Virus record (IMG/VR): IMGVR_UViG_3300020392_000016 | Coordinates: 1-60,880 of that record | Length of the DNA stretch: 60,880 nucleotides | Direction: 5' to 3' (one strand) | DNA from: a virus | Taxonomy: Duplodnaviria; Caudoviricetes | Shown here: positions 2,192 to 23,291 of the stretch, piece after piece | How positions within the stretch are numbered: position 1 is the stretch's first letter | Layout: every line of letters starts with the position of its first letter | Notes under the pieces: model-generated | Seen by the model: the letters and a program-made list of their open reading frames with translations, nothing else | What the model was told of the DNA's origin: nothing | Database searches by the model: none | Position numbers and translations under genes: made by a program

Positions 2192-3643
2192 ATGTCAAGA
2201 TTAAAAGTAAAACAAATTAGTGACTTTAGTACTGCTGTTCAGAACCTAATCGACAACGATGCGGATCAGAATGCTGGATTAATCGATGCTTTAGAAGCTT
2301 CTGTTGACTCTTTAGAAACTGCGACTGGTGGTGATACTACTGCTATTAGCAACTCTATCGATTCATTAGAAACTCTAGTTGCTGCTGATGCTGCTGACGC
2401 TGATGCTTCAATCGATTCATTAGAAACTCAAGTTGGTGCTGCTGAAACAGTTAACACTAACCAGAACGCTTCTATAGATTCTATTGAAACTAGTGCTACT
2501 GCATTAACAGGTATCGTAACTAACCAAGGTGCTTCTATCGATTCATTAGAAGTTGTAGTTGCTGCTGATGCTGATGATGCTGATGCTTCTATCGATTCAT
2601 TAGAAACTGCATTAGGTGCCGAAATCTCTGCGACTAACACAGACGTAACTAACATTGGCGCATCTATCGATTCATTAGAGTCTGCAACTGGTGGTGACAC
2701 TACTGCAATCAATAACTCTATTGATTCATTAGAGGCTGCTGATTCAACGTTACAAGGTAACATCGATGCTGAAAATGCAAGAATTGATGCTATCTTAGCT
2801 GGTTCTGATGCTGACTTAGATCAGTTTGCTGAAGTTGTTGCTTTCATCGAGTCTGTTGATACAGTAACTGATGGAACAATTACTACATTAGCTACTAACA
2901 CTGGTGCATCTATCGATTCATTAGAAGTTTTAGTTACTGCTGATGCTGCTGATGCTGATGCATCTATCGATTCATTAGAAGCTGCTGACGGGTTCCTAGG
3001 TAATTCTGTTGATTCATTAGAGACGTTAATCGCTGCAGATGCTGCAGATGCTGACGCTTCAGTTGATTCATTAGAAACTGCATTAGGTGCCGAAATCTCT
3101 GCGACTAACACAGACGTAACTAATATCGGTGCTTCTATCGATTCATTAGAAACTGCAACTGGCGGTGATACTACTGCTATTAGCAACTCTATCGATTCAT
3201 TAGAAACTCTAGTTGCTGCTGATGCTGGCGATGCTGATGCTTCTATCGATTCATTAGAAACAGCGTTAGGTGCCGAAATCTCTGCAACTAACACTGACGT
3301 TACAAACGTCAATGCTTCAGTTGATTCATTAGAGACATTAGTTACTGCGGACGCTGGTGATGCTGATGCTTCTATCGATTCATTAGAGGATATGGTAACA
3401 TATCAGCATAAGTTTGGTACTGTGTTGAATGCAACATCATTCCAATTGAATGCTCCTCTGAAGTTTGGTGGTGCTGATGACTTATTAGTATTCATTAACG
3501 GACACAACATTCACCCATTAACTGGTGTTGAAGGTGATCCGACGCATGGTTACTCAACTGCTGATGGTCAAACATTTACTCTAACTAACATTGGTTACTC
3601 AATCGATGCTGAGGATGAAGTATATGTTATCGGACACAGATAA
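2192..3643 (+). CDS. Acidic coiled-coil fibre protein with S[IV]DSLE repeats
   Basis: About 17 S[IV]DS[LI]E repeats, mostly 14/18/21/25 aa apart; central LDQFAEVVAFI fibre-like motif; small C-terminal beta domain. Confidence 0.7.
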   Translation: MSRLKVKQISDFSTAVQNLIDNDADQNAGLIDALEASVDSLETATGGDTTAISNSIDSLETLVAADAADADASIDSLETQVGAAETVNTNQNASIDSIETSATALTGIVTNQGASIDSLEVVVAADADDADASIDSLETALGAEISATNTDVTNIGASIDSLESATGGDTTAINNSIDSLEAADSTLQGNIDAENARIDAILAGSDADLDQFAEVVAFIESVDTVTDGTITTLATNTGASIDSLEVLVTADAADADASIDSLEAADGFLGNSVDSLETLIAADAADADASVDSLETALGAEISATNTDVTNIGASIDSLETATGGDTTAISNSIDSLETLVAADAGDADASIDSLETALGAEISATNTDVTNVNASVDSLETLVTADAGDADASIDSLEDMVTYQHKFGTVLNATSFQLNAPLKFGGADDLLVFINGHNIHPLTGVEGDPTHGYSTADGQTFTLTNIGYSIDAEDEVYVIGHR

Positions 3644-3672
3644 TAGTCAAAGTTCTAATTTTTAGGAAAACT

Positions 3673-3698
3673 AAGGGTCCCCTCGGGGACCCTTTTTT
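3673..3698 (+). terminator. Rho-independent terminator
   Basis: AAGGGTCCC-ctcg-GGGACCCTT followed by a T run. Confidence 0.9.
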
Positions 3699-3738
3699 AT
3701 TTGCATGATATATACAATACAAATTAAAACTTATTTGC

Positions 3739-4974
3739 ATGCATATCGGTATAACCATAAGTTTGATGGGAGAGAAAGAGTCTCTCTGGATTAATGGTAT
3801 CAAACTTAACGCTCTATTTCTATCTAAAACTCTTCAGAAAACTGGACATAAAGTTACTATTCTAGATACAGGTAAAAATGTAAAGAAAATTACAAAAGAT
3901 ACAGTTCAATGGGATCTGAAAGAATTCCCCTGTGAAAAATACGGTAAAGTTCAACATACTGTAGATTTAATGATTATGCTTGGTACATCTTTCGATACTG
4001 ACTCAATTAAACACTGGAAGTTAATGGGCCCAAATCGAAAAGTAATAAAATATCACTGTGGTAATAATTATGTAATTGACATGGAAAGATGTATCTTCCC
4101 AAAGAAAGGTCACAGGAATTCTGGTGCAGCAGCTTACCAAAGAGGATGTATGGATGAAGTTTGGTATGTACCTCAACAAGGACATCAAAACAGAGCTTAT
4201 TATTCTGTACTCTATGATTTACCTCTAGAGAAAGTAATTCCAGTACCATTTATATGGGACCCTTATTTCTTAGATATAGAGATTTCTAACTTTGAAAGTA
4301 TTATTAAGAAAGTAGGTACTAAAGCTTATGGTATTCCTATCTATGTTCCAGGAAAGGATAAACAAAACTTAAAGTTCTGTGTATTTGAACCTAACCTAAA
4401 TGTTGTTAAATTTAACATGTTACCCATAATGATTGTTGAACAATGGAAAAGAGATGGTAACAAATTAGATAGTTTGAATTTAATGAGCTCGAAAGGTTTA
4501 ATTACTAGCTCTTACTGGAAGAGTATTATCACAACATTTGATTTAACTAAACCAGGAGATACAGATATTAAAACTTATGGTAGAAGTCCGGTTGCAGTTA
4601 CATTATCTAAACATGCAGATGTAGTTGTTTCTCATCAATGGCATAACCCACTTAATTATGCTTATTTAGATACTCTTTATCTACAATATCCATTGATACA
4701 TAACGCAGATATGATTCAGGATGCAGGATATTACTATAAAGACTTTGATATTAAAGAAGGTTATGATAAACTAAAACATGCAATTGAAAAACATGATGAT
4801 ACTCTAGAAGAATATAATGAAAGATCTGAAAATGTATTGTCTAGATATTGTGTTGACCATAATAGAGGTTTACTCAAAACCTATATTTACTTATTGAAAG
4901 ATTTAATGTCAGGTGAAAGAACTAGTAATCTAAGTTATGATTACGACTGGAAAACTAATTTATATAAAAAATGA
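3739..4974 (+). CDS. Putative glycosyltransferase (DUF2827-like, GT-B fold)
   Basis: SLWINGI N-terminus, FEPNLNVVK and VVSHQWHNPLNYAYLD motifs recalled from the DUF2827 family. Confidence 0.6.
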   Translation: MHIGITISLMGEKESLWINGIKLNALFLSKTLQKTGHKVTILDTGKNVKKITKDTVQWDLKEFPCEKYGKVQHTVDLMIMLGTSFDTDSIKHWKLMGPNRKVIKYHCGNNYVIDMERCIFPKKGHRNSGAAAYQRGCMDEVWYVPQQGHQNRAYYSVLYDLPLEKVIPVPFIWDPYFLDIEISNFESIIKKVGTKAYGIPIYVPGKDKQNLKFCVFEPNLNVVKFNMLPIMIVEQWKRDGNKLDSLNLMSSKGLITSSYWKSIITTFDLTKPGDTDIKTYGRSPVAVTLSKHADVVVSHQWHNPLNYAYLDTLYLQYPLIHNADMIQDAGYYYKDFDIKEGYDKLKHAIEKHDDTLEEYNERSENVLSRYCVDHNRGLLKTYIYLLKDLMSGERTSNLSYDYDWKTNLYKK

Positions 4975-5702
4975 ACAAAGAAATAAAGGACGTAACATTT
5001 TGTTTAACAAGTTGTGGTAGAATGGATGAGCTTGAGAAAACCGTTGATAGTTTTATTAAGTACAATGATTATCCAATTAAAAACTGGTTTATTGTTGAAG
5101 ATTCAGGAGATCCAGAACAACATGATATTTTAAAAAAGTTAAATGCTGAAAAATGGGATAGTAGATTTATGTTGTTTTTAAATAATAAAAACATAGGTCA
5201 GAATGCTTCCATAGATAAAATGTACAAAAATGTTAGTACAGAATACATATTTCATTGTGAAGAAGATTGGGAATTCTATAGAGGTGGTTTTATAGAAGAT
5301 TCTATGAAAGTTTTAGAAACTCAACCTAAAGTTTTACAAGTATGGATTAGACCAAAGTCAGATAAAATACTTAATCCTATTGAAAAGAGACAATTTACTT
5401 TACCTGGTGGTGTGGTTGTTAGAAGAGTTTTACCTGTAAGCTTTAAAATAAAAACAGGAGTAGTAAAAAATTACATGGGCTTTAGTTGGAACCCTGGTTT
5501 GAGAAGAAAATCAGATTGGTTATTAGACCCTATAGCAGGTAATTACACAAGATGTTTACATGAACATATAATTGATGCTGTTTATAGTAGATTAGGTTAT
5601 ATGGTAGTTTCCCTATCTAAAGATGACGAGGATGGATATGTTAAACACATTGGCTGGGGAAACAGAAAAATGGGTAAAACCGAAGCGACAAAAAATTTGT
5701 AA
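4971..5702 (+). CDS. GT-A fold (GT2-like) glycosyltransferase
   Basis: LTSCGR start, IVEDS, YIFHCEEDW acidic motif, C-terminal HIG. Confidence 0.7.
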   Translation: MNKEIKDVTFCLTSCGRMDELEKTVDSFIKYNDYPIKNWFIVEDSGDPEQHDILKKLNAEKWDSRFMLFLNNKNIGQNASIDKMYKNVSTEYIFHCEEDWEFYRGGFIEDSMKVLETQPKVLQVWIRPKSDKILNPIEKRQFTLPGGVVVRRVLPVSFKIKTGVVKNYMGFSWNPGLRRKSDWLLDPIAGNYTRCLHEHIIDAVYSRLGYMVVSLSKDDEDGYVKHIGWGNRKMGKTEATKNL

Positions 5703-5705
5703 ATT

Positions 5706-6494
5706 ATGTATAAATATGATATTACTTGGATTATGCAATCTTACCTTGGTGAGTATGAAGGTAGTAGAGCTAATTCAGATAAAAAGTTTATTAGAGCTGT
5801 AAAATCATTCTTAGCAATTCCAGATGAAAGAACTCAATTAGTAATTGCATCGGATGGATGTGAGATAACTCATAAACTCTACTATAAACATTTTAAAAAA
5901 GAACCAAGGATAGAGTACGTCTATGTTGACAAGAACACACCTAAGATGTACGAAAAATCTAAGGATGGTAGTAATAACCAGTATTATAGAGGGCTGCCCA
6001 GACAAGCTGCACGCGCGTTAGCAGAGGGATATTTAACAGCTTATATAGACTCGGATGATTACTTAATGCCAAATGCTTCTCAAATCATAAAAAGATTTTG
6101 GAATGGTATTACAAAAGCTAACCCAGATGTAGAATATAAATGGGGAGCAATGACACATTGGATTGAGAATGAAGCAATGGCAAAATGGTTAGAAAACAAT
6201 GAAAGTCAAATGTTTGGACCAAGAACAGAACCTTTTAAGATAGAAGGTTTAAAGAGTAAATGGCAGAAGTATTCTATGGATGAGCCTAATAAACATGTAC
6301 AATCAACTACATGGGCAACAGTACATAGATCAGACTGCATTACAAGATGGAAAGACCATATATCAGACCCTAAAGCTGGCGGAATTTCTGAAGATACTTT
6401 ATTTGCAAGAGGTATCAGAAAGGAAGGTCAAGGGATGTTGGTTGATGATGGTTTTTACGTTCGATGTCATTATCATGGAATTTGGGATATTTAA
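5706..6494 (+). CDS. GT-A fold (GT2-like) glycosyltransferase
   Basis: IASDG, AYIDSDD (DxD) and SEDTLF motifs. Confidence 0.7.
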   Translation: MYKYDITWIMQSYLGEYEGSRANSDKKFIRAVKSFLAIPDERTQLVIASDGCEITHKLYYKHFKKEPRIEYVYVDKNTPKMYEKSKDGSNNQYYRGLPRQAARALAEGYLTAYIDSDDYLMPNASQIIKRFWNGITKANPDVEYKWGAMTHWIENEAMAKWLENNESQMFGPRTEPFKIEGLKSKWQKYSMDEPNKHVQSTTWATVHRSDCITRWKDHISDPKAGGISEDTLFARGIRKEGQGMLVDDGFYVRCHYHGIWDI

Positions 6495-6571
6495 ACTACC
6501 CAAATCTTACTTGGTGAGACATTGCCGAAGATATATAATATAACGCGTAAAAAAAATACAAACAGTATTAA

Positions 6572-9500
6572 ATGTCTAGACTAAAATTAAAACAAATACA
6601 GGACTTTTTACTAAATAATCCACAACAGGGTGATTATTTAGAATATAATGCCTCAACCGGACAGTTCGAAAATGCCTCTGCTCCACTTTCTGGAACATCA
6701 GGTTCTTCCGGTTCAAGTGGTTCTTCCGGAACTTCAGGAAGTTCAGGTTCATCAGGTTCATCAGGTACATCTGGTGAAGATGGTGCAGCTGGTGAAGATG
6801 GAACAAGCGGCTCAAGCGGCTCATCTGGTAGCTCAGGAACATCTGGTTCTTCAGGAACTTCAGGTTCTTCAGGTTCAAGTGGCTCAAGCGGAACATCAGG
6901 TTCAAGTGGCTCAAGCGGAACATCAGGCTCAAGTGGCTCAAGTGGTTCATCTGGTACTTCAGGTGAAGATGGTGCAGCTGGTGAAGATGGTGCTGCAGGT
7001 ACTCCAGGTACTTCAGGTTCATCTGGTTCAAGTGGTTCATCTGGTACTTCAGGTTCTTCAGGTACATCTGGTGAAGATGGTGCAGCTGGTGAAGATGGTG
7101 CAGCAGGTGCAGATGGTACTTCAGGTTCATCTGGTTCATCTGGTAGCTCAGGAACATCAGGTTCATCTGGTTCATCTGGTAGCTCAGGAACATCAGGTTC
7201 TTCAGGTACTTCAGGTGAAAACGGTGCAGATGGAACATCTGGTTCATCTGGTTCATCTGGTTCAAGTGGAACATCAGGTTCAAGCGGATCAAGCGGATCT
7301 TCAGGCTCAAGTGGTTCTTCAGGTAGAACAGGTATTGTAGTATTTGGTACTAATGACATTGCCGCTTTCCCAGCCGGCGAATTTAACGGTCAAAAGGGTA
7401 TTGATAATCAAGGTAGAATTTACAAATGGACAGGTTCTGAATGGGAGCTAGACATAAACCTAAACGGTACATCTGGTTCAAGTGGTTCAAGTGGTTCTTC
7501 GGGTTCTTCTGGTTCTAGTGGAACATCAGGTTCATCTGGTTCAAGTGGTTCAAGTGGTTCTTCGGGTTCTTCTGGTTCTAGTGGAACATCAGGTTCATCT
7601 GGTACTTCAGGTTCTTCAGGTAGTTCAGGTTCATCTGGTTCATCTGGTTCTTCAGGTTCATCTGGTTCTTCAGGTTTTAGCGGTGCAAAATCAGGTACGA
7701 ATGTTGAAGACTTAGGTGAGGGTGAATTTAACGGTCAATTAGGTTTTACAGCCGATGGTATACTTCACCAATGGAATGGCGAATCATGGGATGCTATTGA
7801 TGACTTAAACGGTACGTCTGGTTCTTCAGGCTCAAGTGGTTCATCTGGTTCTTCAGGTTCAAGTGGTTCATCTGGTTCTTCAGGTACATCTGGTTCATCT
7901 GGTTCAAGTGGTTCATCTGGTACTTCAGGTTCTTCAGGTACATCTGGTGAAGATGGTGCAGCTGGTGAAGATGGTACTTCTGGTTCTTCAGGCTCAAGTG
8001 GATCTTCAGGTTCAAGTGGAACAAGCGGTTCTTCTGGTTCTTCAGGTTCATCTGGCTCAAGTGGAACATCTGGTTCATCTGGTTCTTCAGGTACATCAGG
8101 TCAAGACGGTAACTTTGGTGGCGCATCATTTGATTACACAATTTCAAATTCAACAAGTGCTGCTCAACCAGGTTCAGGTGTATTAAGATTTAATAACTTT
8201 ACAACACAGACGAGTGCAACTCAAATTTATATAAACCAAACTGACGATGCTGGAGGTAGTGTAGAGTCATTCTTTACATCTTTAGATGCAGTAACATCTG
8301 GTATTAAAGCACATATTAGAATTTCTAAGAAATTCGAAACCGACACATACTTATTATTTGCAATCGGTGATTTAACAGACAATGGCGCATGGTGGACATT
8401 AAGTGATTTATCAAATGTAGGTTCATCAAGTGCAGCTCCATTTGCACATACTGATGATATTGTAATTTCATTAGTTGCGACTGGTGATAAAGGTGACCCT
8501 GGTACATCTGGTTCTTCAGGTTCTTCAGGTTCATCTGGCTCAAGCGGAACTTCAGGTTCAAGTGGTTCTTCAGGTTCTTCAGGTTCAAGTGGAACATCTG
8601 GTTCATCTGGTACATCTGGTGGAGATGGTAGTGATGGTGAAGACGGAACATCAGGTTCTTCAGGTTCATCTGGTTCAAGTGGAACAAGCGGTTCTTCTGG
8701 TTCTTCAGGTTCATCTGGCTCAAGCGGAACATCTGGTTCAAGCGGAACATCTGGTTCTTCAGGTAGTTCAGGTTCTTCAGGTTCATCTGGTTCAAGTGGT
8801 TCATCCGGTACTTCAGGTTCATCTGGTTTCTCAGGTGCTAAACAAGCTGAAAATACAGAAGGTTTAGGTGAGGGTGAATATACAGGCCAATCAGGTTTTA
8901 CTGATGATGGAAGAATGTATAGATGGAATGGTGAAGCATGGGAATTAGTACAAGACTTAAATGGTTCTTCAGGTTCAAGCGGCTCATCTGGTTCAAGCGG
9001 TTCATCTGGTACTTCAGGTTCTTCAGGTTCAAGTGGTTCTTCAGGAACTTCAGGTTCTTCAGGTTCATCTGGCTCAAGCGGAACTTCAGGTTCAAGTGGT
9101 TCATCTGGTTCTTCAGGTACATCTGGTTCCTCGGGTACTTCAGGTACTGATGGTGCTGATGGTGTAGGTAGTGATGGTGAAGACGGTACATCTGGTTCTT
9201 CTGGTTCTTCTGGAACTTCAGGTTCATCTGGTTCTTCAGGTTCATCTGGCTCAAGCGGAACATCTGGTTCTTCAGGTTCATCTGGTTCTTCAGGTACATC
9301 TGGTTCAAGCGGTTCATCTGGTTCTTCAGGAACTTCAGGTTCTTCAGGTTCATCTGGCTCAAGTGGAACATCTGGTTCATCTGGTTCTTCAGGTACATCA
9401 GGTACTGACGCTGTTGTTTCAATTTCCGCAGGTAACACCAACAACAGAGTTGTTACTATGACAGGTAATAACAGTACACCATTTACCGGGGAAGCAAACA

Positions 9501-9625
9501 TGACGTTCAATGATTCTACTAGTATTCTTACTGTTTCAACTGGACACATCGTTACTACTAAATATGTCTTTAACAGTGGAGGTGAAATAACATCGGACGG
9601 TAGTACAATGAGGTTCCAATTTTAA
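6572..9625 (+). CDS. Gly-Ser-Ser/Gly-Thr-Ser triplet-repeat fibre protein
   Basis: Long runs of GSS/GTS triplets with GED/GAA blocks, three small Trp-containing inserts (GE[FY]xGQxG...Wx[G]xxW...LNG) and one central globular domain. Confidence 0.75.
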   Translation: MSRLKLKQIQDFLLNNPQQGDYLEYNASTGQFENASAPLSGTSGSSGSSGSSGTSGSSGSSGSSGTSGEDGAAGEDGTSGSSGSSGSSGTSGSSGTSGSSGSSGSSGTSGSSGSSGTSGSSGSSGSSGTSGEDGAAGEDGAAGTPGTSGSSGSSGSSGTSGSSGTSGEDGAAGEDGAAGADGTSGSSGSSGSSGTSGSSGSSGSSGTSGSSGTSGENGADGTSGSSGSSGSSGTSGSSGSSGSSGSSGSSGRTGIVVFGTNDIAAFPAGEFNGQKGIDNQGRIYKWTGSEWELDINLNGTSGSSGSSGSSGSSGSSGTSGSSGSSGSSGSSGSSGSSGTSGSSGTSGSSGSSGSSGSSGSSGSSGSSGFSGAKSGTNVEDLGEGEFNGQLGFTADGILHQWNGESWDAIDDLNGTSGSSGSSGSSGSSGSSGSSGSSGTSGSSGSSGSSGTSGSSGTSGEDGAAGEDGTSGSSGSSGSSGSSGTSGSSGSSGSSGSSGTSGSSGSSGTSGQDGNFGGASFDYTISNSTSAAQPGSGVLRFNNFTTQTSATQIYINQTDDAGGSVESFFTSLDAVTSGIKAHIRISKKFETDTYLLFAIGDLTDNGAWWTLSDLSNVGSSSAAPFAHTDDIVISLVATGDKGDPGTSGSSGSSGSSGSSGTSGSSGSSGSSGSSGTSGSSGTSGGDGSDGEDGTSGSSGSSGSSGTSGSSGSSGSSGSSGTSGSSGTSGSSGSSGSSGSSGSSGSSGTSGSSGFSGAKQAENTEGLGEGEYTGQSGFTDDGRMYRWNGEAWELVQDLNGSSGSSGSSGSSGSSGTSGSSGSSGSSGTSGSSGSSGSSGTSGSSGSSGSSGTSGSSGTSGTDGADGVGSDGEDGTSGSSGSSGTSGSSGSSGSSGSSGTSGSSGSSGSSGTSGSSGSSGSSGTSGSSGSSGSSGTSGSSGSSGTSGTDAVVSISAGNTNNRVVTMTGNNSTPFTGEANMTFNDSTSILTVSTGHIVTTKYVFNSGGEITSDGSTMRFQF

Positions 9626-9645
9626 TTAACAGTAAAGAATAAGAG

Positions 9646-11772: not shown

Positions 11773-11820
11773 TAAAAGAATTGAATATATACAATAAGAT
11801 AAAAACAGAAAAACTAAACA

Positions 11821-13965
<2,145 letters not shown>

Positions 13966-13985
13966 TAATATAATAAAGCAAAAGC

Positions 13986-16784
13986 ATGGCTGACTACAAT
14001 AGAATACTTATTGCAGGTAATCCGGTACTAACAACCGATAACTTATCCGAGGACAACTTCCCACATCTATTAGGTGAGAAAGGTGCTGAAGGTGGTGCTG
14101 GTTCTAAAGGTACAACTGGTTCTAAAGGTACTAAAGGAGCAAAAGGTACAAAAGGTGCTGAAGGTGGCCAAGGTGACCAAGGTTCAAAAGGAACAAAGGG
14201 TGGTGTAGGTCCACAGGGTGATAAAGGTTCAAAAGGACGTAAAGGTGCGGCTGGTGAAGACATAGAACTAAAAGCAGCTTCAGGAGCCGCGGGTGATAAA
14301 GGTAATACTGGTTCAAAAGGTGCTACAGGTGCTCAAGGTGCTGAAGGTGGAATTGGTGATGACGGTGCAAAAGGTGTAAAAGGTATCAAAGGTACTGGAG
14401 GTAGTGCTGGTGAAAAAGGAGCTACAGGTTCAAAAGGACCACAAGGAACTGCTGGTTCACAAGGTGCTACAGGTTCAAAAGGTAATAAAGGTGAGACAGG
14501 TGCAACAGGCGGTCAAGGTGCTAAAGGAGATACTGGTCCAAAAGGTGAAGTAGGTGATGATGGTACTCCTGGCTCAAGTCCAGCAGGTCAAAAAGGTGCA
14601 CAAGGTGCAAAAGGTAACACTGGCCCAAGTCCAATAGGTGACCAAGGTGCAAAAGGTGACCAAGGTGCTCAAGGTGCTACTGGTGATACTGGTATAGACG
14701 TAAGTGGTGCTGCAAAAGATAATCTGTTTGCAGACTTTGGAGACCAAGGTGCACAAGGTGCACAAGGTGACCAAGGTGGTATTGGTGACCAGGGTGGAGT
14801 AGGTGATAGTCCAACTGGTGACAAAGGTCCAACTGGTGACCAAGGTGCAAAAGGTAATACTGGTGAACAAGGTGAGATTGGTGGTCAGGGTGCAAAAGGT
14901 AATACTGGTGCAAAAGGTAAAACAGGTGACCAAGGTGTACAAGGTGACCAAGGTCCAACTGGTGCGACTGGTCTAGACGGTTACGTAAGTGTTAATAACG
15001 TAGAAGGTGGATCTGGTTCTTTTGATGGCGGTAACATGATTGATTATTCAACATGGGTAGCTGGTAACTCTTCTGCTACTGGTTTCTCACGTAATGGTGA
15101 TGCAAATGAAAACTTAATTATCGAAGGAGAAGGTCCTTTCGGTGAGAATACTCTATTATGGAAAACAATTCCAAACGGTCTTGGTAATAACGGTGATGGT
15201 GGTTGGAATAGTTCATACGTCAGTGTAGACCACACTAAACTATATAGGATTAGTGTATGGATGAAAAGAATTTCGGACCAAGCAAACGGTACATTCTATT
15301 TAGGAACAAACGGTGGTGGAGCATGTGTATTACAAGGAAACAATGGTGCATCACAATGTAATCCATATTTTGAATGTCGTGGTGTTAGTGGTTATACAAA
15401 AGATCAATGGTATTTAGTAGTAGGTCACGTATATCCTTCTAGTACTTCAACTCCAGTAGCAAGACATGCACAGACAGGTGTATATACAATGTCTGGTGAA
15501 GCATTTGAAACCAATGGTTGTAACCTAGGCGGTGATGCAGTAATGCAAACTACAACCACATCGCTTAGACATAGAACATATCATTTCTATGCTAATAGTT
15601 CTGGTACAGAATTAGTATTCGCATATCCAAGAATAGAACAGGTTACTCCTGCAACGCCTAACATTGTAGATGGTTATTTAGCTGATTCATTCACTAATGT
15701 AGGTCCTAAAGGTACACAAGGTGACACAGGTGCTACTGGTCCTAAAGGTGGAATAGGTGATTCTCCAGCAGGTGATACAGGTGACCAAGGTGCAAAAGGT
15801 AATACTGGTCCTAAAGGTGACCAAGGTGACCAAGGTCCAAAAGGTAGTGTTGGTGGAGACGGTGCTGGAGGTACAAAAGGTTTCTTTGGATTAGGTGGTG
15901 TAACTGGTGACCAAGGTGGTGTAGGAGATGAAGGCCCTAAAGGTGGTGAAGGAGATGTGGGTGACCAAGGTGCTACAGGTCCAAAAGGTCCAAAAGGAGA
16001 TATAGGCCCTAAAGGTGGTGTAGGAGATGAAGGTGACCAAGGTGCACAAGGTGACCAAGGTGACCAAGGTGATAAAGGTAACACTGGTCCTAAAGGTGCA
16101 GTTGGTGACCAAGGTGAACAAGGTGAGACTGGTGACCAAGGAGAACAAGGTGGCGGAGGTGATAAAGGTCCAGATGGTGATAAAGGTGAAGTTGGTGACA
16201 AAGGTCCAGGTGGTGATAAAGGTCCAACTGGTGACAAAGGTCCAACTGGTGACAAAGGTCCAGGTGGTGGTCAAGGTGGAGATGGTCTTATAGGTTTTCA
16301 AGGCGAACAAGGTCCAACTGGTCCAAAGGGTGCAAAAGGTAACACAGGTCCAAAAGGTGTAAAAGGTAATACTGGCCCAACAGGTGCAAAAGGCGTAACA
16401 GGTTCTCAAGGTGCAAAAGGTAATACTGGTCAGAAAGGTGTCCAAGGTCCACAAGGTGCTACAGGTCCAACTGGCACATCGTCAGGTGGTCAAGGTGCAA
16501 AAGGTCAAAAAGGACAAACCGGTGCTCAGGGCCCACAAGGTCCAGCTGGAACTGGTGGAACTCTACAGTCTTATGAAATTACATCACAATGTTTTAGCAG
16601 TAGCTCAGGTACATATACAGATACAGGTGGTACTCAATTCTGGCAAGTAGGTTTCTTTAGTTCTCTACAAGTATGTTCAACAACTTTCCCTCAATGCTCT
16701 AGTAATTGTGGATGTGTAAATATAGGATTAGGCTTTTCGATTTGTGGTCCAGGAGGAGGCGAACCAGGAAAACCTCAAAGATAA
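13986..16784 (+). CDS. Collagen-like fibre with internal CBM-like domain and Cys-rich tip
   Basis: Two interrupted Gly-X-Y blocks flank a globular domain (approx. 14975-15700); C-terminal 70 aa contain 6 Cys. Confidence 0.8.
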   Translation: MADYNRILIAGNPVLTTDNLSEDNFPHLLGEKGAEGGAGSKGTTGSKGTKGAKGTKGAEGGQGDQGSKGTKGGVGPQGDKGSKGRKGAAGEDIELKAASGAAGDKGNTGSKGATGAQGAEGGIGDDGAKGVKGIKGTGGSAGEKGATGSKGPQGTAGSQGATGSKGNKGETGATGGQGAKGDTGPKGEVGDDGTPGSSPAGQKGAQGAKGNTGPSPIGDQGAKGDQGAQGATGDTGIDVSGAAKDNLFADFGDQGAQGAQGDQGGIGDQGGVGDSPTGDKGPTGDQGAKGNTGEQGEIGGQGAKGNTGAKGKTGDQGVQGDQGPTGATGLDGYVSVNNVEGGSGSFDGGNMIDYSTWVAGNSSATGFSRNGDANENLIIEGEGPFGENTLLWKTIPNGLGNNGDGGWNSSYVSVDHTKLYRISVWMKRISDQANGTFYLGTNGGGACVLQGNNGASQCNPYFECRGVSGYTKDQWYLVVGHVYPSSTSTPVARHAQTGVYTMSGEAFETNGCNLGGDAVMQTTTTSLRHRTYHFYANSSGTELVFAYPRIEQVTPATPNIVDGYLADSFTNVGPKGTQGDTGATGPKGGIGDSPAGDTGDQGAKGNTGPKGDQGDQGPKGSVGGDGAGGTKGFFGLGGVTGDQGGVGDEGPKGGEGDVGDQGATGPKGPKGDIGPKGGVGDEGDQGAQGDQGDQGDKGNTGPKGAVGDQGEQGETGDQGEQGGGGDKGPDGDKGEVGDKGPGGDKGPTGDKGPTGDKGPGGGQGGDGLIGFQGEQGPTGPKGAKGNTGPKGVKGNTGPTGAKGVTGSQGAKGNTGQKGVQGPQGATGPTGTSSGGQGAKGQKGQTGAQGPQGPAGTGGTLQSYEITSQCFSSSSGTYTDTGGTQFWQVGFFSSLQVCSTTFPQCSSNCGCVNIGLGFSICGPGGGEPGKPQR

Positions 16785-16797
16785 ATAGATAGTAAAC

Positions 16798-17697
16798 ATG
16801 GAATACTTTGATTCAAATAGATACTTTTCACTAACTGGTAATACATGGGCATATAAGCATGATATTTTACCATCAGCTCAACATAGACTATCTAGTAGTA
16901 TTGCTGAACCAACTGGTTCTGCGGTAGATAAAATTAAAGCTGTAGAGACTGTTTGGTATAAGTTTAATACACTAGGTGGTGAGATGGGTTTCCCTGAAGA
17001 CGTTACTGAAATGGGTCTAATGGCTCAAGACTTAATGGCTGTTGAACCATCTTTAGTTAGAGAAATGGATTGGTTAGGTCCAGATGCTGCAGGTGAAGGT
17101 CAAGGAGGTTTCTATATGATAGACTATAATGCTCTTAACGTTTTAGTTCTTGATGCATTAAATGAATTAAATGCTAGAGCTGAAGCTGCAAAAGTACAAT
17201 TAGGTATTACTCCAGCAGAAACATATCCTGCTAGAGCAACTACAACTACTCTAGCGCCACATGCTTCTAACTTTGCATTGAGTGTAACTCCTACAAGCGG
17301 ACCTGAAGGTTCAGAGTCAGTTTGGACTTTAACATGTGATAATGCCGTTGAAGGTCTGGTAGTCGGTTTTAAAATCGGAGGAACATGTGATATAGATGAT
17401 ATTTCATGTGACGAGCCAAGAGTTTACTTAACTCATGTCACAGATGATGATTTATTAGACGAAGATAAAGACTATGCTACTGACTATGACTCAGACTTAG
17501 AAGGTCGTATGTTTGGTATATTTTGGTTTGACGCAGCTGCCGCTGCAGCAGGTTCACTTTCAATTACACTGAAATACAATGTAGATAATTTAGCTGAAGG
17601 TGACGAGACTATTATTATGACTATGAAGCCACGTGATAATAAAGGAGGTCCTGGCCCAGGTAATAGCGTGACCGCTACTGCAGTAATCACATCTTAA
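16798..17697 (+). CDS. Stand-alone S74-like chaperone domain fused to a Calx-beta/Ig-like domain
   Basis: AVDKIKAV..YKFN..GLMAQDL..VEPSLV..IDYNAL..DALNEL; C-terminal DNLAEGDETI. Confidence 0.6.
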   Translation: MEYFDSNRYFSLTGNTWAYKHDILPSAQHRLSSSIAEPTGSAVDKIKAVETVWYKFNTLGGEMGFPEDVTEMGLMAQDLMAVEPSLVREMDWLGPDAAGEGQGGFYMIDYNALNVLVLDALNELNARAEAAKVQLGITPAETYPARATTTTLAPHASNFALSVTPTSGPEGSESVWTLTCDNAVEGLVVGFKIGGTCDIDDISCDEPRVYLTHVTDDDLLDEDKDYATDYDSDLEGRMFGIFWFDAAAAAAGSLSITLKYNVDNLAEGDETIIMTMKPRDNKGGPGPGNSVTATAVITS

Positions 17698-17739
17698 GCA
17701 AAAGAGACTAGGATACATATATTCTAATACAGTCTCACA

Positions 17740-18240
17740 TTGTTAAAACGTTTAAGCATATTAATAACTATATTCTGTGTTTGCTTACATTTTCTGCAAA
17801 CACCAGATACTAATAAGTATAATACATCCAACAAAAAGATTTTTAAATATACTATTGTAGATATAGTTAACAATAAATCTATTCAAGACTTCTTAACAGA
17901 TTCTATAAATTTTAATCCACCCTATCGTGGTCCTGTAATTAAACTTAAATTTGCACCCCTACATCCTAGAATTGGAGGTTTAACTACACAGGTTACAGAC
18001 AGAGTTTATTTTATACAAATAAATTCTTTATACCCATTGCTTTCTGCAAGAAGAATTCTAATGCATGAGTTAATTCATGTTTTTCAATTTGAAAAAGAAT
18101 GGTTAAAAGAATTACCAGGTGGTGTGGTTTTATGGAAAGGTAATTATTACACTTGGGGATTACCATGGTCACAAAGACCTTGGGAAATACAAGCAGAAGA
18201 ATGGACTGAAGAGCTGTTCAAAATTGAGCTAGATAAATAA
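17740..18240 (+). CDS. Small zincin metallopeptidase-like protein
   Basis: HELIH motif and downstream PWEIQAE; hydrophobic N-terminus; TTG start uncertain. Confidence 0.6.
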   Translation: MLKRLSILITIFCVCLHFLQTPDTNKYNTSNKKIFKYTIVDIVNNKSIQDFLTDSINFNPPYRGPVIKLKFAPLHPRIGGLTTQVTDRVYFIQINSLYPLLSARRILMHELIHVFQFEKEWLKELPGGVVLWKGNYYTWGLPWSQRPWEIQAEEWTEELFKIELDK

Positions 18241-18247
18241 TCTATAA

Positions 18248-18275
18248 GAAACAATTTTAATTTCTTTAGTATAAC
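18248..18275 (+). promoter_or_regulatory. GAAAC-N17-TATAAC promoter-like motif
   Basis: Same motif recurs at 23211, 29190, 35047, 35987 and 46457. Confidence 0.6.
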
Positions 18276-18291
18276 TTTTAAAAACTTACAC

Positions 18292-18921
18292 ATGGCAAAA
18301 TACGTTTTCGAACAAGAACAAAACGATCCCCAACAGTATTACTGGTTCAAGAATGCTTTATCAAAAGAAGAAGTAGACCGTGTTATAGCAACAGCAGAAA
18401 AATTACCTATCCATAGAGCAACTACCATAGGTTCAGATGGAGAAGTCACAGAAGCAAATGACCCAAATGGTGTTAGATCTTCAATGATAAAATGGATCCC
18501 ACAGAAAGATGAGTGGGATTGGTTGTATGATAGAATGAAAGACCTCTGTCTAGAAGCCAATAACACATTATGGAAGTTTGATTTACATTCAGCACCAGAA
18601 CAAATACAATATACAGAATACTACGACCACGAGAATGGTCACTATGACTGGCACCAAGATATTGGACCTGGTTTTACTCCATCCAGAAGAAAGATTTCAA
18701 TAACTATTCAATTATCAGATACTGATGAATACCAAGGTGGTGATTTACAAATTACTAGTGGTGGTAATGGACCTGACGGACTTATGCCTTCTATGACTTG
18801 TCCTAGAGGTGCAGGTGTTGGAGTTCTTTTCCCTAGTTACATGATGCACAGAGTTTCACCAATTACAAAAGGTACAAGAAAATCTCTAGTACTTTGGGTA
18901 GGTGGAGCACATTACAAATAA
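18292..18921 (+). CDS. 2OG-Fe(II) oxygenase, prolyl 4-hydroxylase/PKHD-like
   Basis: WHQD (HxD), YQGGDL, FPSYMMHRV (distal His), RKSLVLW (2OG-binding Arg). Confidence 0.85.
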   Translation: MAKYVFEQEQNDPQQYYWFKNALSKEEVDRVIATAEKLPIHRATTIGSDGEVTEANDPNGVRSSMIKWIPQKDEWDWLYDRMKDLCLEANNTLWKFDLHSAPEQIQYTEYYDHENGHYDWHQDIGPGFTPSRRKISITIQLSDTDEYQGGDLQITSGGNGPDGLMPSMTCPRGAGVGVLFPSYMMHRVSPITKGTRKSLVLWVGGAHYK

Positions 18922-18924
18922 AAT

Positions 18925-20046
18925 ATGAGAGTACTGTTTTGGGTAGGCTATCGATTTGAAGACTGGAATAGCCAATCAGATGGTTTAGGTGGAACTGAAA
19001 TAGCAGTTTCTAAAGTAGCAGAGTCTTTAGCACAATATGGACATGAAGTTACAGTCGCAGGAGAAGTTATCTCAGGCGTACATAATCGTGTAACATGGTT
19101 AAGCCTTTCAGACTTTACGAACCAAAGCTTCAAAAAAGACCCTAACAGATTTGATATAGTAGTAGGAGTTAATTACTTACACTTCGTACAACTTCTAGAT
19201 GACGAAGGTTTAAAACCAAAACACTTAGTATTCTGGTTACACAATACAGAATGGCATGAATACTATAAAGGTGAAGTTCTAGATAACCAAATGGACTTAT
19301 TACACAGAATAGACACTGTGGTAACGCCCAGCGCATGGTCTAATCAACGATTTATGGAAACTTATATAACACCATTCCGTAATAGTCCTCGCCGCTGGAA
19401 TGGCTTAGTTCAATCACAGGTCAATGGTATCGATCCTCTTAAATTTAAAATGAAATGTGCTAAAGATCCTAATAAATTTATTTGGTCTTCTGCAGTTGAT
19501 AGAGGTTTAGATAAATTGCTTGACAATTGGTGGAGAGTTAAAGAGGCAATGCCAGAAGCAACACTAGATATTTACTATCCAAAATACTCTGACCCTCATG
19601 TTCAAGATGACAGAAATTGGTATAATATAAGTGGTATTCTAGATAAATTAGAAAATGTAAAAGATCTTGGTGTAAATGATATGGGAAGTGTAAGTCAAGA
19701 TGAACTTCATTTAGCTATGCAGAAAGCTAGTTATTGGATGTATCTTACTGATTACGAAGAGACCTTTTGTATTACAGCTTTAGAAATGCAAATGGCAGGA
19801 GTATTTTGTATTGTATCAGATACAGCAGCATTACCATTTGTAGTTAAAGATGGTATAATTGTACCTACTACAAATGATGAAACAATGTTTAAAAATTCGA
19901 TACAATTATTAAGCATGATGGACCAAGGTCTAAAGCATAAAGCTCTAAGAGATGCAAAAGAAAGAGCTAAATTATTCAACTGGGACTTAGTAGGTCAAAG
20001 TTGGCATGACATGTTAAAAACATATTTATTACATAGAGCAAAATGA
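18925..20046 (+). CDS. GT-B fold (GT4-like) glycosyltransferase
   Basis: GLGGTE, NGID, SSAVDRGL and EETFCITALEMQMAG (E-x7-E) motifs. Confidence 0.85.
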   Translation: MRVLFWVGYRFEDWNSQSDGLGGTEIAVSKVAESLAQYGHEVTVAGEVISGVHNRVTWLSLSDFTNQSFKKDPNRFDIVVGVNYLHFVQLLDDEGLKPKHLVFWLHNTEWHEYYKGEVLDNQMDLLHRIDTVVTPSAWSNQRFMETYITPFRNSPRRWNGLVQSQVNGIDPLKFKMKCAKDPNKFIWSSAVDRGLDKLLDNWWRVKEAMPEATLDIYYPKYSDPHVQDDRNWYNISGILDKLENVKDLGVNDMGSVSQDELHLAMQKASYWMYLTDYEETFCITALEMQMAGVFCIVSDTAALPFVVKDGIIVPTTNDETMFKNSIQLLSMMDQGLKHKALRDAKERAKLFNWDLVGQSWHDMLKTYLLHRAK

Positions 20047-21464
20047 GAATTAACAAAATATACGTTATTAGTTTAGGAATATATTCTAAACCAAAATTAC
20101 AAGAAGCAATAGAAGCTAAATTAGAAGACATGGACTTCTTTGCTAATACAGGATATGAAATTCTTGAAGCATTTGATGGTAGAGATGGTGCAATTGAAGA
20201 TGGGTATTCTGTTTATCAAAACTGGGACTTAGGTAAAGGTACATGGAACGACTGGTGGCAAAGACCTGTTTTAGGTGGAGAAATCGGTTGTGCAATATCA
20301 CATAGAAAAGTATGGGAAAGAATTGTATTCGATGGACATGGTTTATCTTTAGTTTTAGAAGAAGACTTTATTATGAATGAGGGTGGTTCAATCGCAGCCC
20401 TACAAGACCCTCCGGTTAGTTCTAACTGGGATATTGCTCTATTAGGTAGAGATAAAATTGAAAGAGACGTAGAAGAAGCTACTATTGATAATGTATGGTG
20501 TAGGCCTAGACACTTCTATAATCTACATGCTTATGTAATTAAGAATTCAGATGTTGCTAAAAGACTTTTATCAGGTGGTTTAAAAGAGAATGTAATTCCA
20601 GTTGATGAATATGTAAGTGCTTTAGGTTATGCACATAGAAGAGAAGATGTTAGAAATATGTTTCCACCATCAATGACAATTATAGCTACACAAGACCCAA
20701 ATTTTGTAGTACAAAAGAGAGAAGGTACTCCATTCAGAGAGTCTAGCATTGAGCCAACTGATGGTTCTTCTCCAAACGACACAATTGACATACCTGCAGA
20801 TGCAAATGGTATGCCACCATCCCCAAATGATATGCCTACAAATGAAAATTATTATGAGATTCTAGACGTTTCCGATTGGGACGCATGGAAAGAAAAGTAT
20901 GTAAATCTGTCAGTAGCAAAAGGTGAATATGACTTAATGGTTTCCGATAGAGGAGACAATGTATTTGAGTTCCCATTATTTACCCCTAAATTCTGTAAAG
21001 AAGCAGTCGCTCTTGCAGAGTCAAAAGATAATTGGACTATAGACAGACATGAATTTTATCCAACCAATGATGTTTTACTACAAGACATTGGTTTAGATGC
21101 TATTTACAATAGAGTATTAGATGAAGTTGTTAGACCTTTAGCTATTCATTTATGGAATTTAGAAGGAGAGTCTTGGAAAGGTTTTTCAAATGAAAACTTT
21201 ATGGCAAGATATACGACAAGTAGACAATCACATCTATCACTGCACCACGATAGAAGCCATTTAACGATGGTTATTAAATTGAATGATGAATTTAGTGGTG
21301 GTGGAACTTGGTTCCCTCAGTATCAAAAGTTATCTAATCCAGCAGAGATAGGTACAGCAGTACTTCACCCTGGAATGATAACACACAGACATGGAGCCCG
21401 ACCAATCACATTGGGCAAGAGATACATTATCGTATCATTCATTCGCTCTCATTTAGAGCCTTAA
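20043..21464 (+). CDS. Fusion of COLGALT-like GT25 glycosyltransferase and PLOD-like lysyl hydroxylase
   Basis: N-half: AFDG, GEIGCAISH..VW, LVLEED, WDIALLGR, AYVI, IPVDEY. C-half: WKEKY, FPLF..FC, PTND, NFMARY, HHD, GGGTWF, LHPG..THRHG, RYIIVSF. Confidence 0.85.
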   Translation: MRINKIYVISLGIYSKPKLQEAIEAKLEDMDFFANTGYEILEAFDGRDGAIEDGYSVYQNWDLGKGTWNDWWQRPVLGGEIGCAISHRKVWERIVFDGHGLSLVLEEDFIMNEGGSIAALQDPPVSSNWDIALLGRDKIERDVEEATIDNVWCRPRHFYNLHAYVIKNSDVAKRLLSGGLKENVIPVDEYVSALGYAHRREDVRNMFPPSMTIIATQDPNFVVQKREGTPFRESSIEPTDGSSPNDTIDIPADANGMPPSPNDMPTNENYYEILDVSDWDAWKEKYVNLSVAKGEYDLMVSDRGDNVFEFPLFTPKFCKEAVALAESKDNWTIDRHEFYPTNDVLLQDIGLDAIYNRVLDEVVRPLAIHLWNLEGESWKGFSNENFMARYTTSRQSHLSLHHDRSHLTMVIKLNDEFSGGGTWFPQYQKLSNPAEIGTAVLHPGMITHRHGARPITLGKRYIIVSFIRSHLEP

Positions 21465-21484: not shown

Positions 21485-21913
21485 ATGAAACAAGAAATAA
21501 CATTACGCTCCATCACTGGAGACGACGGTCACTTAGTCTCTCCTGTTTTGAATGCAGGTAGAAAGAACTACTTAATTGACATTGACGGCACAATTACAGA
21601 TGATGTACCAAACGAAGAGCCAGAGAGAATGTCAGTAGTACTACCATATCAAGGAGCAAAAGATACATTAAATAAATGGTACGACGAAGGCCATGTAATT
21701 ACTTTCTTTACTTCAAGAACTGAAGATGTAAGAGATATTACAGAAGCTTGGTTAAATAAACATGGTTTTAAATACCATGGTCTATTAATGGGTAAACCTA
21801 GAGGTGGTAACTATCACTGGGTTGATAATCATATTGTTAAAGCTACACGATACGAAGGTAAGTGGGCAGATTTAGTAGAAGAAGAAAGAACAATAGAAGT
21901 ATTCCCATCTTAA
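21485..21913 (+). CDS. HAD-superfamily phosphatase-like protein (Flavobacteria-type)
   Basis: DIDGT motif I, FTSR motif II, MGKP. Confidence 0.75.
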   Translation: MKQEITLRSITGDDGHLVSPVLNAGRKNYLIDIDGTITDDVPNEEPERMSVVLPYQGAKDTLNKWYDEGHVITFFTSRTEDVRDITEAWLNKHGFKYHGLLMGKPRGGNYHWVDNHIVKATRYEGKWADLVEEERTIEVFPS

Positions 21914-21920
21914 ACTCATA

Positions 21921-21929
21921 GATATATAA
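21921..21929 (+). promoter_or_regulatory. GATATATAA late-promoter-like motif (representative copy)
   Basis: GATA[TAG]ATA or a close variant precedes most structural genes; see findings. Confidence 0.65.
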
Positions 21930-21932
21930 TCT

Positions 21933-22874: not shown

Positions 22875-23106
22875 ACCAAACTATCAATGCATGCACATTA
22901 GTATCTGGGTGCATCACATGCATATAGATCCACTATTTGATTTCTTGAATGGTAGGATTAAAGAAGCGCCGGATTGGTATCTGAGCGAGTCTAAATGCCC
23001 AGAGTCAATAACTGGAGGTTATGTTGAAATAACTCTTTCTTTTGAAGCATATTCATTACTTTCTTCCCATAAAGATTGGGAAGCTTCTGCAGGTTGGATG
23101 GCTTAA
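22867..23106 (+). CDS. Hypothetical protein
   Basis: 79 aa ORF overlapping the upstream stop. Confidence 0.55.
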   Translation: MGKPNYQCMHISIWVHHMHIDPLFDFLNGRIKEAPDWYLSESKCPESITGGYVEITLSFEAYSLLSSHKDWEASAGWMA

Positions 23107-23116
23107 AACAAAAATT

Positions 23117-23221: not shown

Positions 23222-23239
23222 AACTTCGAACGTATAACT

Positions 23240-23269
23240 AACCGTCTAGGGTAACTTAGGCGGTTTTTT
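23240..23269 (+). terminator. Rho-independent terminator
   Basis: AACCGTCTAGG-gtaa-CTTAGGCGGTT followed by a T run. Confidence 0.75.
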
Positions 23270-23291
23270 AGTATTTAAAGGAATAAAAGGT

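Follow-up and report, generated by a model that had tools for sequence, protein, structure and literature searches.

Does a tailed phage that encodes collagen fibres also encode the enzymes that modify them? This question is raised by a 60,880-base stretch of viral DNA, the whole of IMG/VR virus record IMGVR_UViG_3300020392_000016 (hereafter the window), in which a 19-kb locus at positions 2,192 to 21,464 carries genes for collagen-like fibres and ends in ORF 20043, a predicted fusion of a GT25 glycosyltransferase with a lysyl hydroxylase (LH); open reading frames (ORFs) are named here by their first position. We find it probable that this phage hydroxylates lysine (Lys) residues of its own collagen fibres and glycosylates the product, with a predicted fibre-modifying operon just downstream of the fibre genes.

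The original prediction, made from the letters of the window, had described a co-oriented locus with three Gly-X-Y fibres, S74 chaperones, a 2-oxoglutarate (2OG) oxygenase and a fusion of GT25 with a PLOD-like domain. We found every one of its ORFs in place on the + strand, and profile searches bore out these assignments: PF01391 scored over the Pfam cut-off in ORFs 6572, 11821 and 13986, Peptidase_S74 in ORF 16798 and at the C-terminus of ORF 11821, and 2OG-FeII_Oxy_3 in ORF 18292, while ORF 20043 carries PF01755 at residues 5-114 and a second half that matches the solved L230 and LH3 proteins. The collagen genes and the two enzyme genes nearest to the question are the following.

6572..9625, + strand: Ser/Thr-rich collagen fibre with globular inserts between triplet stretches (PF01391, E 2.9e-88)
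11821..13965, + strand: Lys-rich collagen fibre with a C-terminal S74 intramolecular chaperone, proposed substrate (PF01391, E 2.2e-83; PF13884)
13986..16784, + strand: Lys-rich collagen fibre with a central globular domain, proposed substrate (PF01391, E 3e-54)
18925..20046, + strand: GT1/GT4 (GT-B) glycosyltransferase, proposed second-sugar transferase (PF00534 and PF13692, both over cut-off)
20043..21464, + strand: fusion of GT25 (COLGALT-like) and lysyl hydroxylase (PLOD/L230-like), the proposed core enzyme (PF01755, 38.5 bits against a cut-off of 24)

The fusion protein appears to keep the active sites of both enzyme families

ORF 20043 encodes 473 amino acids (aa) in two halves linked by about 45 poorly conserved residues. 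When we compared its sequence with those of solved structures, the LH half (residues 254-467) matched the LH domain of Mimivirus L230 (E 7.1e-28) and human LH3 (E 2e-21), and the next 2OG oxygenase family in line was the prolyl 4-hydroxylase (P4H) of B. anthracis, at only E 0.04. An OGFOD2-like Pfam match to the LH half remained below threshold (25.8 against 31 bits). Further hallmarks of L230-type LH enzymes are a double-stranded beta-helix with insertions specific to LH, a homodimer that Fe stabilises and activity requires, and 5-hydroxylation of Lys in X-Lys-Gly; GT25 enzymes of the COLGALT1 type use UDP-galactose as donor and Hyl as acceptor. Residues 67-199 matched human COLGALT1 (E 4e-8). 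We found that the AlphaFold2 model of the GT25 half has a predicted local distance difference test score (pLDDT) of 80-93, and when this model was compared with the PDB by Foldseek, ranks 1 to 8 were all human COLGALT1 (E 2.9e-13 to 2e-11), with the next match at 1.6e-6.

The catalytic residues can be placed by alignment. In L230 the Fe ligands are H825, D827 and H877, and the 2OG ligands are Y814 and R887 (Guo et al. 2018, PMC5802723); residues H401, D403, H450, Y390 and R460 of ORF 20043 align with these five, in that order. In GLT25D1 (COLGALT1), a 2026 structure paper describes D522 as the catalytic base and D436/D437 as ligands of the ribose of uridine diphosphate (UDP) and of Mn (PMC12987934). 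D188 of ORF 20043 aligns with D522, D108 with D437 and E107 with D436, and the COLGALT1 alignment ends short of the lid-loop residues S569/T571. Across 15 sequences, the homologues being 51-72% identical, Y390, H401, D403, H450, R460 and D188 are invariant. As judged from these alignments, the mapped LH and GT25 catalytic residues are intact in ORF 20043. The protein is compact: the non-catalytic N-terminal GT2 lobe of COLGALT1 was not found in it by Pfam or in the model, where GT25 begins at residue 5, and neither the PLOD glycosyltransferase domain (PF25342) nor the accessory domains of LH3 were found by Pfam.

Lysine is concentrated at the Y position of two fibres

Judged by PF01391, by their long triplet runs and by the S74 end of ORF 11821, the products of ORFs 11821, 13986 and 6572 are predicted collagen triple-helix proteins. 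The 195 triplets of ORF 11821 follow one another without a break; 62 of them have Lys at Y, 44 have Pro at X and 3 have Pro at Y. ORF 13986 has 188 triplets, with Lys at Y in 56 and Pro at X in 28. Lys is thus found at about 30% of Y positions in both proteins and at almost none of the X positions. The 221 triplets of ORF 6572 are nearly all GSS or GTS (Ser at X in 134 and at Y in 186), and only 3 have Lys at Y. The animal LH and COLGALT1 act on Lys at Y (PMC12987934, PMC13382579). When we pooled 44 distinct collagen ORFs linked to homologues of the fusion, their 7170 triplets had Lys at Y in 1175 and at X in 28, and Pro at X in 1477 and at Y in 119.

A collagen related to ORF 6572 was also seen in a randomly drawn viral contig (L247, positions 1-2862, from a record 29% complete), where a GSS/GTD collagen shares the insert GQDGNFGGASF...IKGHVKISKKF; because of this shared insert, the Ser-rich fibre type appears to be common in marine viral contigs.

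Homologues of the fusion occur in viral records that carry collagen genes

To count homologues of ORF 20043, we carried out an exhaustive profile-free search, which returned 2686 protein clusters at E ≤1e-3 and 113 at ≤1e-30. A single-protein scan of viral contigs gave 1 close relative, and an alignment-based, motif-seeded scan of IMG/VR gave 37 loci. We scored an ORF as collagen when it held a run of at least 8 triplets, and the flanks examined were 247 kb upstream and 350 kb downstream. Collagen ORFs were present inside the fetched flanks of 22 of the 37 viral loci. All 32 of these ORFs are on the strand of the enzyme, 29 upstream of it and 3 downstream. In 14 of the 15 loci with collagen-free flanks we searched the whole record with PF01391, and half of them (7/14) hold collagen elsewhere, including ORFs of 1780-2707 aa, which brings the total to 29 of 37 homologue-carrying records. 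As a control, we drew viral records of at least 34 kb by an arbitrary 14-mer, and found collagen in 1 of 23 (Fisher p = 3e-9, uncorrected for relatedness; this value overstates independence because the carrier records are related to one another). The possibility that homologues are common in collagen-free genomes, which had been raised with the original prediction, does not fit these counts.

We also looked in the reverse direction, using a degenerate Gly-codon pattern to draw 15 viral records of at least 28 kb with at least 3 pattern matches. There was no LH match in any of the 15, and a GT25 match without LH in 1. The collagens of 10 of these records were read by eye; 8 have 0-1 Lys at Y (GYS, GSS/GTD, GPT/GAT and GPP types), and one (L199) has a few GSK triplets.

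Cultured phages carry related fusions beside Lys-rich collagens

The original prediction had proposed a test of synteny between the fusion and Lys-rich collagens across large phage genomes, and synteny is present in four cultured phages, where the two genes lie close together. Roseobacter phage CRP-6, whose genome is complete, encodes its tail fibre as gp60 (99 triplets, with Lys at Y in 26) and the homologue as gp58, two genes further on; the small gp59 separates the two. In the cyanomyoviruses S-8S53, S-PRM1 and S-CAM9, the homologue is three genes after the tail fibre, behind two small 2OG oxygenases, and the fibres contain 55-59 triplets with Lys at Y in 22-24. The proteins of CRP-6, S-8S53 and S-PRM1 consist of GT25, a PLOD-type glycosyltransferase domain (GT_PLOD; PF25342 at E 4.5e-28, 2.4e-47 and 9.1e-46, respectively) and LH. 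The LH domain is C-terminal in these fusions (E 6e-22 and 1e-18 against the LH half of ORF 20043) and keeps the HxD...H motif. By these domain matches, cultured phages have relatives of all three animal activities in a single polypeptide, encoded next to a Lys-rich collagen. These separate lineages (CRP-6 and the cyanophages) weigh more than the co-occurrence count.

Among the best 150 cluster representatives, with Pfam run on a sample of them, 61 are GT25-LH (with 4 more that have N-terminal extensions), 24 are GT1-GT25-LH, 2 are GT1-LH and 42 are LH alone.

The gene for a GT-B glycosyltransferase overlaps the fusion gene

The stop codon of ORF 18925 overlaps the start of ORF 20043 as ATGA. 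Of the 21 loci in which we found a homologue of ORF 18925, 20 have it immediately upstream of the fusion and one (L023) has it downstream. The full length of ORF 18925 matches the N-terminal domain of a GT1-GT25-LH protein, P0127 (36% identity, E 3e-51), and it aligns over its full length with the N-terminal domain of a second such protein (E 2e-35); its best match among PDB sequences is weak (E 0.0028). Because GT1, GT25 and LH are fused in these proteins, the Rosetta-stone argument suggests that the three act together. We propose that the GT-B enzyme takes the place that the PLOD glycosyltransferase domain would hold in the cyanophages. A predicted complex of the fusion with ORF 18925 scored 0.06 against a mark of 0.32, which carries no weight either way.

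In two related records (L024 and L025, 8958-10621), the GT1 gene is followed by an ORF that matches only query residues 262-469, that is, an LH-only ORF in which the GT25 half is apparently missing.

A possible route from lysine to a glycosylated fibre

We infer the following order of steps and choice of sugars. Modification would take place in the infected cell, ahead of triple-helix folding. The C-terminal LH domain of ORF 20043, using Fe(II), 2-oxoglutarate and O2, would first hydroxylate the Y-position Lys of Gly-X-Lys triplets in the products of ORFs 11821 and 13986. The N-terminal GT25 domain would then move a hexose from a UDP-sugar onto the new hydroxyl, which is the COLGALT1 reaction. 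A second sugar would be added by the GT1 enzyme of ORF 18925, translationally coupled to the fusion, or, in the cultured cyanophages and CRP-6, by the PLOD-type glycosyltransferase domain inside the fusion. The outcome would be glycosylated hydroxylysine (Hyl) along the fibre shaft.

A wider claim, which we advance tentatively as possible but a little short of probable, is that several tailed-phage lineages (jumbo phages whose hosts are probably marine Bacteroidota, T4-like cyanophages and a roseophage) carry an animal-type pathway from Lys to Hyl, hexosyl-Hyl and dihexosyl-Hyl in one operon or polypeptide and sugar-coat their collagen tail fibres with it. Such a pathway would be a widespread marine trait and a candidate reservoir for the enzymes of giant viruses and metazoans.

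Evidence that weighs against modification of the fibres, and two alternatives

Several observations count against the proposal that the phage modifies its own fibres. The fusion has E107 where COLGALT1 has the first Asp of its D436/D437 pair, at a position that is Asp in most homologues, and the homologues P0099 and P0104 are without the GT25 Asp motif. S-PRM1 and CRP-6 have Lys at the position of the 2OG-binding Arg. Residues 228-473 of the fusion were modelled by AlphaFold2 at pLDDT <50; with the LH half modelled this poorly, the LH fold rests on sequence only. The related loci come mostly from one phage lineage, and the synteny is therefore partly inherited. Among the 36 carrier records searched, 7 are without collagen, and all 7 are fragments (8-44% complete). 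In the L026-L031 clade (about 67 kb; two records 96% complete), the GT25 and LH genes are in the replication region, far from collagen. There, in L029 (5477-13680) and also in L031, GT25 and LH are encoded by two neighbouring genes, after which come a homologue of ORF 18292 and further 2OG-oxygenase-like ORFs (three after LH); a GT25 fused to a further domain precedes the cluster, and a family-B DNA polymerase adjoins it. The same clade has a huge Lys-rich collagen elsewhere in the genome, with Lys at Y in 73-103 triplets per ORF.

Some of the contrary evidence favours a different target. The LH-like domain could hydroxylate some other protein or residue, whether in the virion or in the host, or make a modification of the Ser, Thr or Asn type, while the collagens stay unmodified and are stabilised by Lys-Gly-Asp/Glu salt bridges. 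Lys at Y followed by Gly-Asp or Gly-Glu is an electrostatic stabiliser of collagens free of hydroxyproline (Hyp), so the bias towards Lys at Y could be explained without any enzyme. Consistent with this, L174 of the reverse test, a 32-kb record that is 85% complete, has two collagen ORFs rich in GPK, GEK and GDK triplets (8996-11935) and no LH or GT25 match. From the reverse-test readings including this record, we conclude that LH tracks Lys-rich collagens, yet such collagens exist without LH. L032, L033 and L035 have an LH-only gene directly beside a collagen-like ORF in which no Lys stands at Y among 28 triplets, and in P0142 an LH-like domain is joined to a C39 peptidase; the 42 LH-only proteins among the best 150 representatives and the low confidence of the LH model agree with another target as well. 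We nevertheless consider another target unlikely. All five active-site residues of L230 are invariant, and the similarity to L230 and LH3 is far above that to any other solved 2OG oxygenase, the B. anthracis P4H included. Fusion to GT25 and to the PLOD glycosyltransferase domain also fits a Hyl product, which is the acceptor of both enzymes in animals (PMC12987934).

The glycosyltransferases and oxygenases could instead be host-directed auxiliary genes, acting on lipopolysaccharide (LPS), capsule, cell wall or a small metabolite, with their position by the fibre genes an inherited gene order. The names of the families point this way: PF01755 is an LPS biosynthesis family in Pfam, and in PHROGs their category is 'moron, auxiliary metabolic gene and host takeover'. 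Cyanophage GT25 genes have been listed under cell-wall synthesis and modification (PMC12801897), cyanophage dioxygenase arrays have been interpreted as secondary-metabolite enzymes (PMC2938197), and the genes of the L029 clade adjoin a DNA polymerase. An LPS role, however, leaves unexplained why GT25 is covalently fused to a domain that, among solved structures, is closest to collagen lysyl hydroxylases, and why cultured phages carry GT25+GT_PLOD+LH fusions. Nor does a host-directed role account for collagen in 29 of 37 carriers as compared to 1 of 23 controls. In a non-exhaustive scan of prokaryotes with two motif patterns (one genome for each of 185,579 species), we found only 2 loci, both on contigs of metagenome-assembled genomes, one with collagen ORFs upstream; one of the two contigs had been binned as Flavobacteriaceae. 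We regard the host-directed explanation as improbable.

A fusion homologue 53% identical to ORF 20043 (P0063) is recorded on a contig of 104,430,999 bases, the size of a eukaryote chromosome.

The 2OG oxygenase and the other genes of the locus

The remaining features of the locus and its immediate neighbours are the following.

33..2018, + strand: 661-aa protein, probable fibre-tip module (no Pfam or PHROG match; its L012 homologue, E 9e-122, is in one ORF with a collagen stalk)
2192..3643, + strand: repeat-rich (ASIDSLE-type) fibrous protein (sub-threshold Pfam matches only; one 183-nt repeat)
3739..4974, + strand: DUF2827 protein, possible GT-B glycosyltransferase, a lead only (PF10933, E 1.2e-84)
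4971..5702, + strand: GT2-family glycosyltransferase (PF00535 at 28.0 bits, cut-off 23.3; start overlapping with the stop of ORF 3739)
5706..6494, + strand: probable GT-A/GT2-like glycosyltransferase, a lead only (DSDD motif; GT2-named Atlas clusters, score 0.98)
9646..11772, + strand: 708-aa protein amid the fibre genes (no Pfam or PHROG match; homologues in L007, L018 and L024)
16798..17697, + strand: S74 chaperone-of-endosialidase protein, tail-fibre-like (PF13884, 28 bits against a cut-off of 22; tail-fibre PHROGs)
17740..18240, + strand: 166-aa HExxH protein, possible minimal metallopeptidase, a lead only (HELIH motif)
18292..18921, + strand: 2OG/Fe(II) oxygenase of the PKHD / prolyl-hydroxylase-like group (PF13640, E 9.5e-13)
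21485..21913, + strand: HAD-type phosphatase (Pfam)
21933..22874, + strand: R2K-like ATP-grasp (Pfam match below cut-off)

ORF 18292 matches PF13640 at 49.4 bits against a cut-off of 27, and H121, D123, H186, R196 and S198 are invariant in 16 sequences. Its AlphaFold2 model (pLDDT 80.8) is nearest in fold to 3DKQ, a Pseudomonas P4H, PHD2, PiuC and the PBCV-1 enzyme vCPH (template modelling scores of about 0.55-0.66), and by sequence its nearest relatives are PKHD/PiuC proteins (E 4e-5), below the NCBIfam cut-offs. On this model it would be prolyl-hydroxylase-like at the level of fold and superfamily only. Its homologues are found with the fusion at 18 loci in two clades, one of them the distant L026-L031 group, and its role is therefore likely to be linked to that of the fusion.

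We considered whether the locus encodes a full animal-like pathway, in which ORF 18292 hydroxylates Pro, the other four glycosyltransferases all add sugars to the fibres and trimming is done by the HExxH protein. This is unlikely. Pro is found at Y, the canonical P4H site, in only 3 of 195 triplets in ORF 11821 and 119 of 7170 in the pooled set, and the sequence relatives of ORF 18292 are PKHD/PiuC proteins (E 4e-5), not collagen P4H; set against this are the Pro residues at X (44 of 195 triplets in ORF 11821, 28 of 188 in ORF 13986), the membership of ORF 18292 in PF13640 with invariant HxD...H and RxS residues, the likeness of its model to prolyl hydroxylases including the viral collagen P4H of PBCV-1, and its company with the fusion in 18 loci including the L026-L031 clade. 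Homologues of the DUF2827 protein and of ORF 5706 upstream of the fibres, in 4/5 and 3/5 relatives, would also suit a full pathway, while ORFs 3739, 5706 and 17740 are without glycosyltransferase or peptidase family assignment and homologues of ORF 17740 are in only 2 of the 37 loci. Thus, where the original prediction had the phage mature its own fibres by hydroxylation of both residues, hydroxylation and glycosylation of Lys gain comparative support (from the catalytic residues, the co-occurrence in 29 of 37 records and the cultured phages), and prolyl hydroxylation is not supported, nor is a part in fibre maturation for all four glycosyltransferases or for the zincin.

Of the four glycosyltransferases originally named, those at 4971 (GT2) and 18925 (GT1) are over Pfam cut-offs, and those at 3739 and 5706 are leads only. 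A sequence search of the PDB gave no relative for ORF 3739; beyond DUF2827, its next-nearest Atlas clusters are GT56 (score 0.92). ORF 5706 has no Pfam, NCBIfam or PHROG match and only a weak PDB match (E 0.04). In five related records, we found homologues of the DUF2827 protein (4 of 5) and of ORF 5706 (3 of 5) at 11-16 kb upstream of the fusion; because both recur in relatives, the 19-kb module is conserved. As a guess, the upstream glycosyltransferase-like genes could O-glycosylate the Ser/Thr-rich fibre of ORF 6572. The earlier zincin label for ORF 17740 keeps its HELIH motif and is otherwise a lead only: the protein matches phrog_16532, which has no functional annotation, and, weakly, the MJ1213 protein (E 0.02), and its homologues are only in L002 and L007.

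In the L018 record (G042:C1:23252-24473), a DUF2827 homologue is read through two TGA stops and one TAG stop, and may be a pseudogene or recoded.

Relation to known systems

To our knowledge, glycosylation of hydroxylysine is treated as an animal hallmark, with Mimivirus the one viral exception. A full-text literature search, with supplements outside its scope, found no description of a bacteriophage lysyl hydroxylase, of Hyl or of Hyl glycosylation in a bacteriophage, in agreement with the earlier statement that no such phage pathway had been described. In the accessible part of a review, prokaryotic and phage collagens are mostly unmodified and Mimivirus is cited as a virus that modifies its collagen; L230 is said there, after Luther 2011, to hydroxylate and glycosylate (PMC8968730). 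Virus-encoded Lys modification of collagen is thus known from Mimivirus, as it is from animals; its predicted occurrence in bacteriophages and the fused architectures are new.

The predicted phage system resembles human LH3/PLOD3 and GLT25D1/COLGALT1, which hydroxylate collagen Lys and then place Gal and Glc on the Hyl, in its LH domain with the same Fe and 2OG ligands, in its GT25 domain with a base Asp and a Mn-binding Asp, in Lys at Y of Gly-X-Y and in an associated second glycosyltransferase. It differs in that one cytoplasmic polypeptide of 473 aa stands in place of an endoplasmic reticulum complex of two large proteins, in that the second transferase is a GT-B enzyme (GT1/GT4), and in that the putative substrate, a phage fibre, has its Pro at X and lacks a Hyp site. 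Mimivirus L230, a bifunctional collagen lysyl hydroxylase and glucosyltransferase, is likewise an LH that a virus encodes for collagens of its own, and no solved protein is closer to the LH domain of ORF 20043. L230, however, comes from a giant virus of amoebae, and the partner in the window is GT25, with no match to a PLOD-type glycosyltransferase; the cultured phages carry both.

ORF 18292 shares with P4Hs (PBCV-1 vCPH, Pseudomonas PPHD and PHD2) and with PKHD/PiuC proteins its fold, PF13640 and the HxD...H plus RxS residues; unlike P4Hs, its sequence relatives are PKHD/PiuC proteins and the co-encoded fibres offer almost no Pro at Y. The role of a viral P4H is called cryptic in the available text of a Baltic virome paper (PMC9301287). 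Mycobacteriophages also use phage enzymes to glycosylate their own virion proteins (Freeman et al. 2023); there, as described in the accessible text of a moraphage paper, the glycans are at the C-termini of capsid and tail-tube subunits, with no collagen, hydroxylase step or Hyl linkage, and the same text reports four groups of core glycosyltransferases, while neither 'collagen' nor 'hydroxylase' occurs in it (PMC12619734). Iyer et al. (2010) predicted that prokaryotic collagen-like and tail-collar proteins are hydroxylated by co-encoded 2OG dioxygenases; in the part of that work available, the enzymes belong to the families of beta-hydroxylase and of phytanoyl-CoA hydroxylase, alongside sulfotransferases, in bacterial operons (PMC2938197).

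If the fibres are modified as proposed, this would be a new kind of post-translational modification on phage virions, with possible effects on how hosts are recognised, on resistance to proteases and on stability in seawater. It would also explain what some of the many 2OG-oxygenase and glycosyltransferase 'auxiliary' genes in marine phages do, provide compact, bacterial-compatible enzymes for hydroxylated and glycosylated recombinant collagen, and bear on the origin of the animal collagen-modifying toolkit. The idea is open to direct test, since the module is present in four phages in culture.

Source of the window and minor observations

The record that makes up the window is estimated to be 23% complete. 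Its sizeable ORFs are all on the + strand, its G+C content is about 35%, and most of its proteins outside the 19-kb locus are without a family match. The Rad3-type helicase at 47001-48731 is about 30% identical to helicases of Bacteroidota jumbo phages (Chryseobacterium MA9V-2, Tenacibaculum pT24 and PTm1, and Lak phages), and full-length homologues of ORF 20043 occur on contigs of up to 215-262 kb. We read the window as a fragment of a large marine tailed phage, and take a Bacteroidota host as a lead only. A giant-virus origin was rejected on the tail-fibre PHROGs, the S74 chaperones, the helicase nearest to those of Bacteroidota jumbo phages and the Atlas neighbours, which are Uroviricota.

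Contigs of marine metatranscriptomes from one study match parts of ORFs 13986, 16798, 18292, 18925 and 20043 without mismatch, which, with DNA carry-over possible in these RNA libraries, is a weak hint that genes of the locus are expressed; the RNA bins without cover (17295-18260, 19871-20514 and 20837-21158) carry no meaning.

Downstream of the fusion, the HAD-type phosphatase, the R2K-like ATP-grasp and ORF 23292 (21485-24023 of the window) keep their order in more than 20 related loci; an ATP-grasp peptide ligase adjoining protein-modifying enzymes may be another modification step. In the related phage L012 (4598-7810), the homologue of the 661-aa protein of 33-2018 is fused behind a collagen stalk, which suggests that fibre-tip modules are shuffled among fibres. 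The repeat-rich fibre (2192-2230) and the Ser-rich collagen (6572-6610) have in common the N-terminal motif MSRLK(V/L)KQI(S/Q)DF, which is possibly the end by which both proteins dock to the virion.

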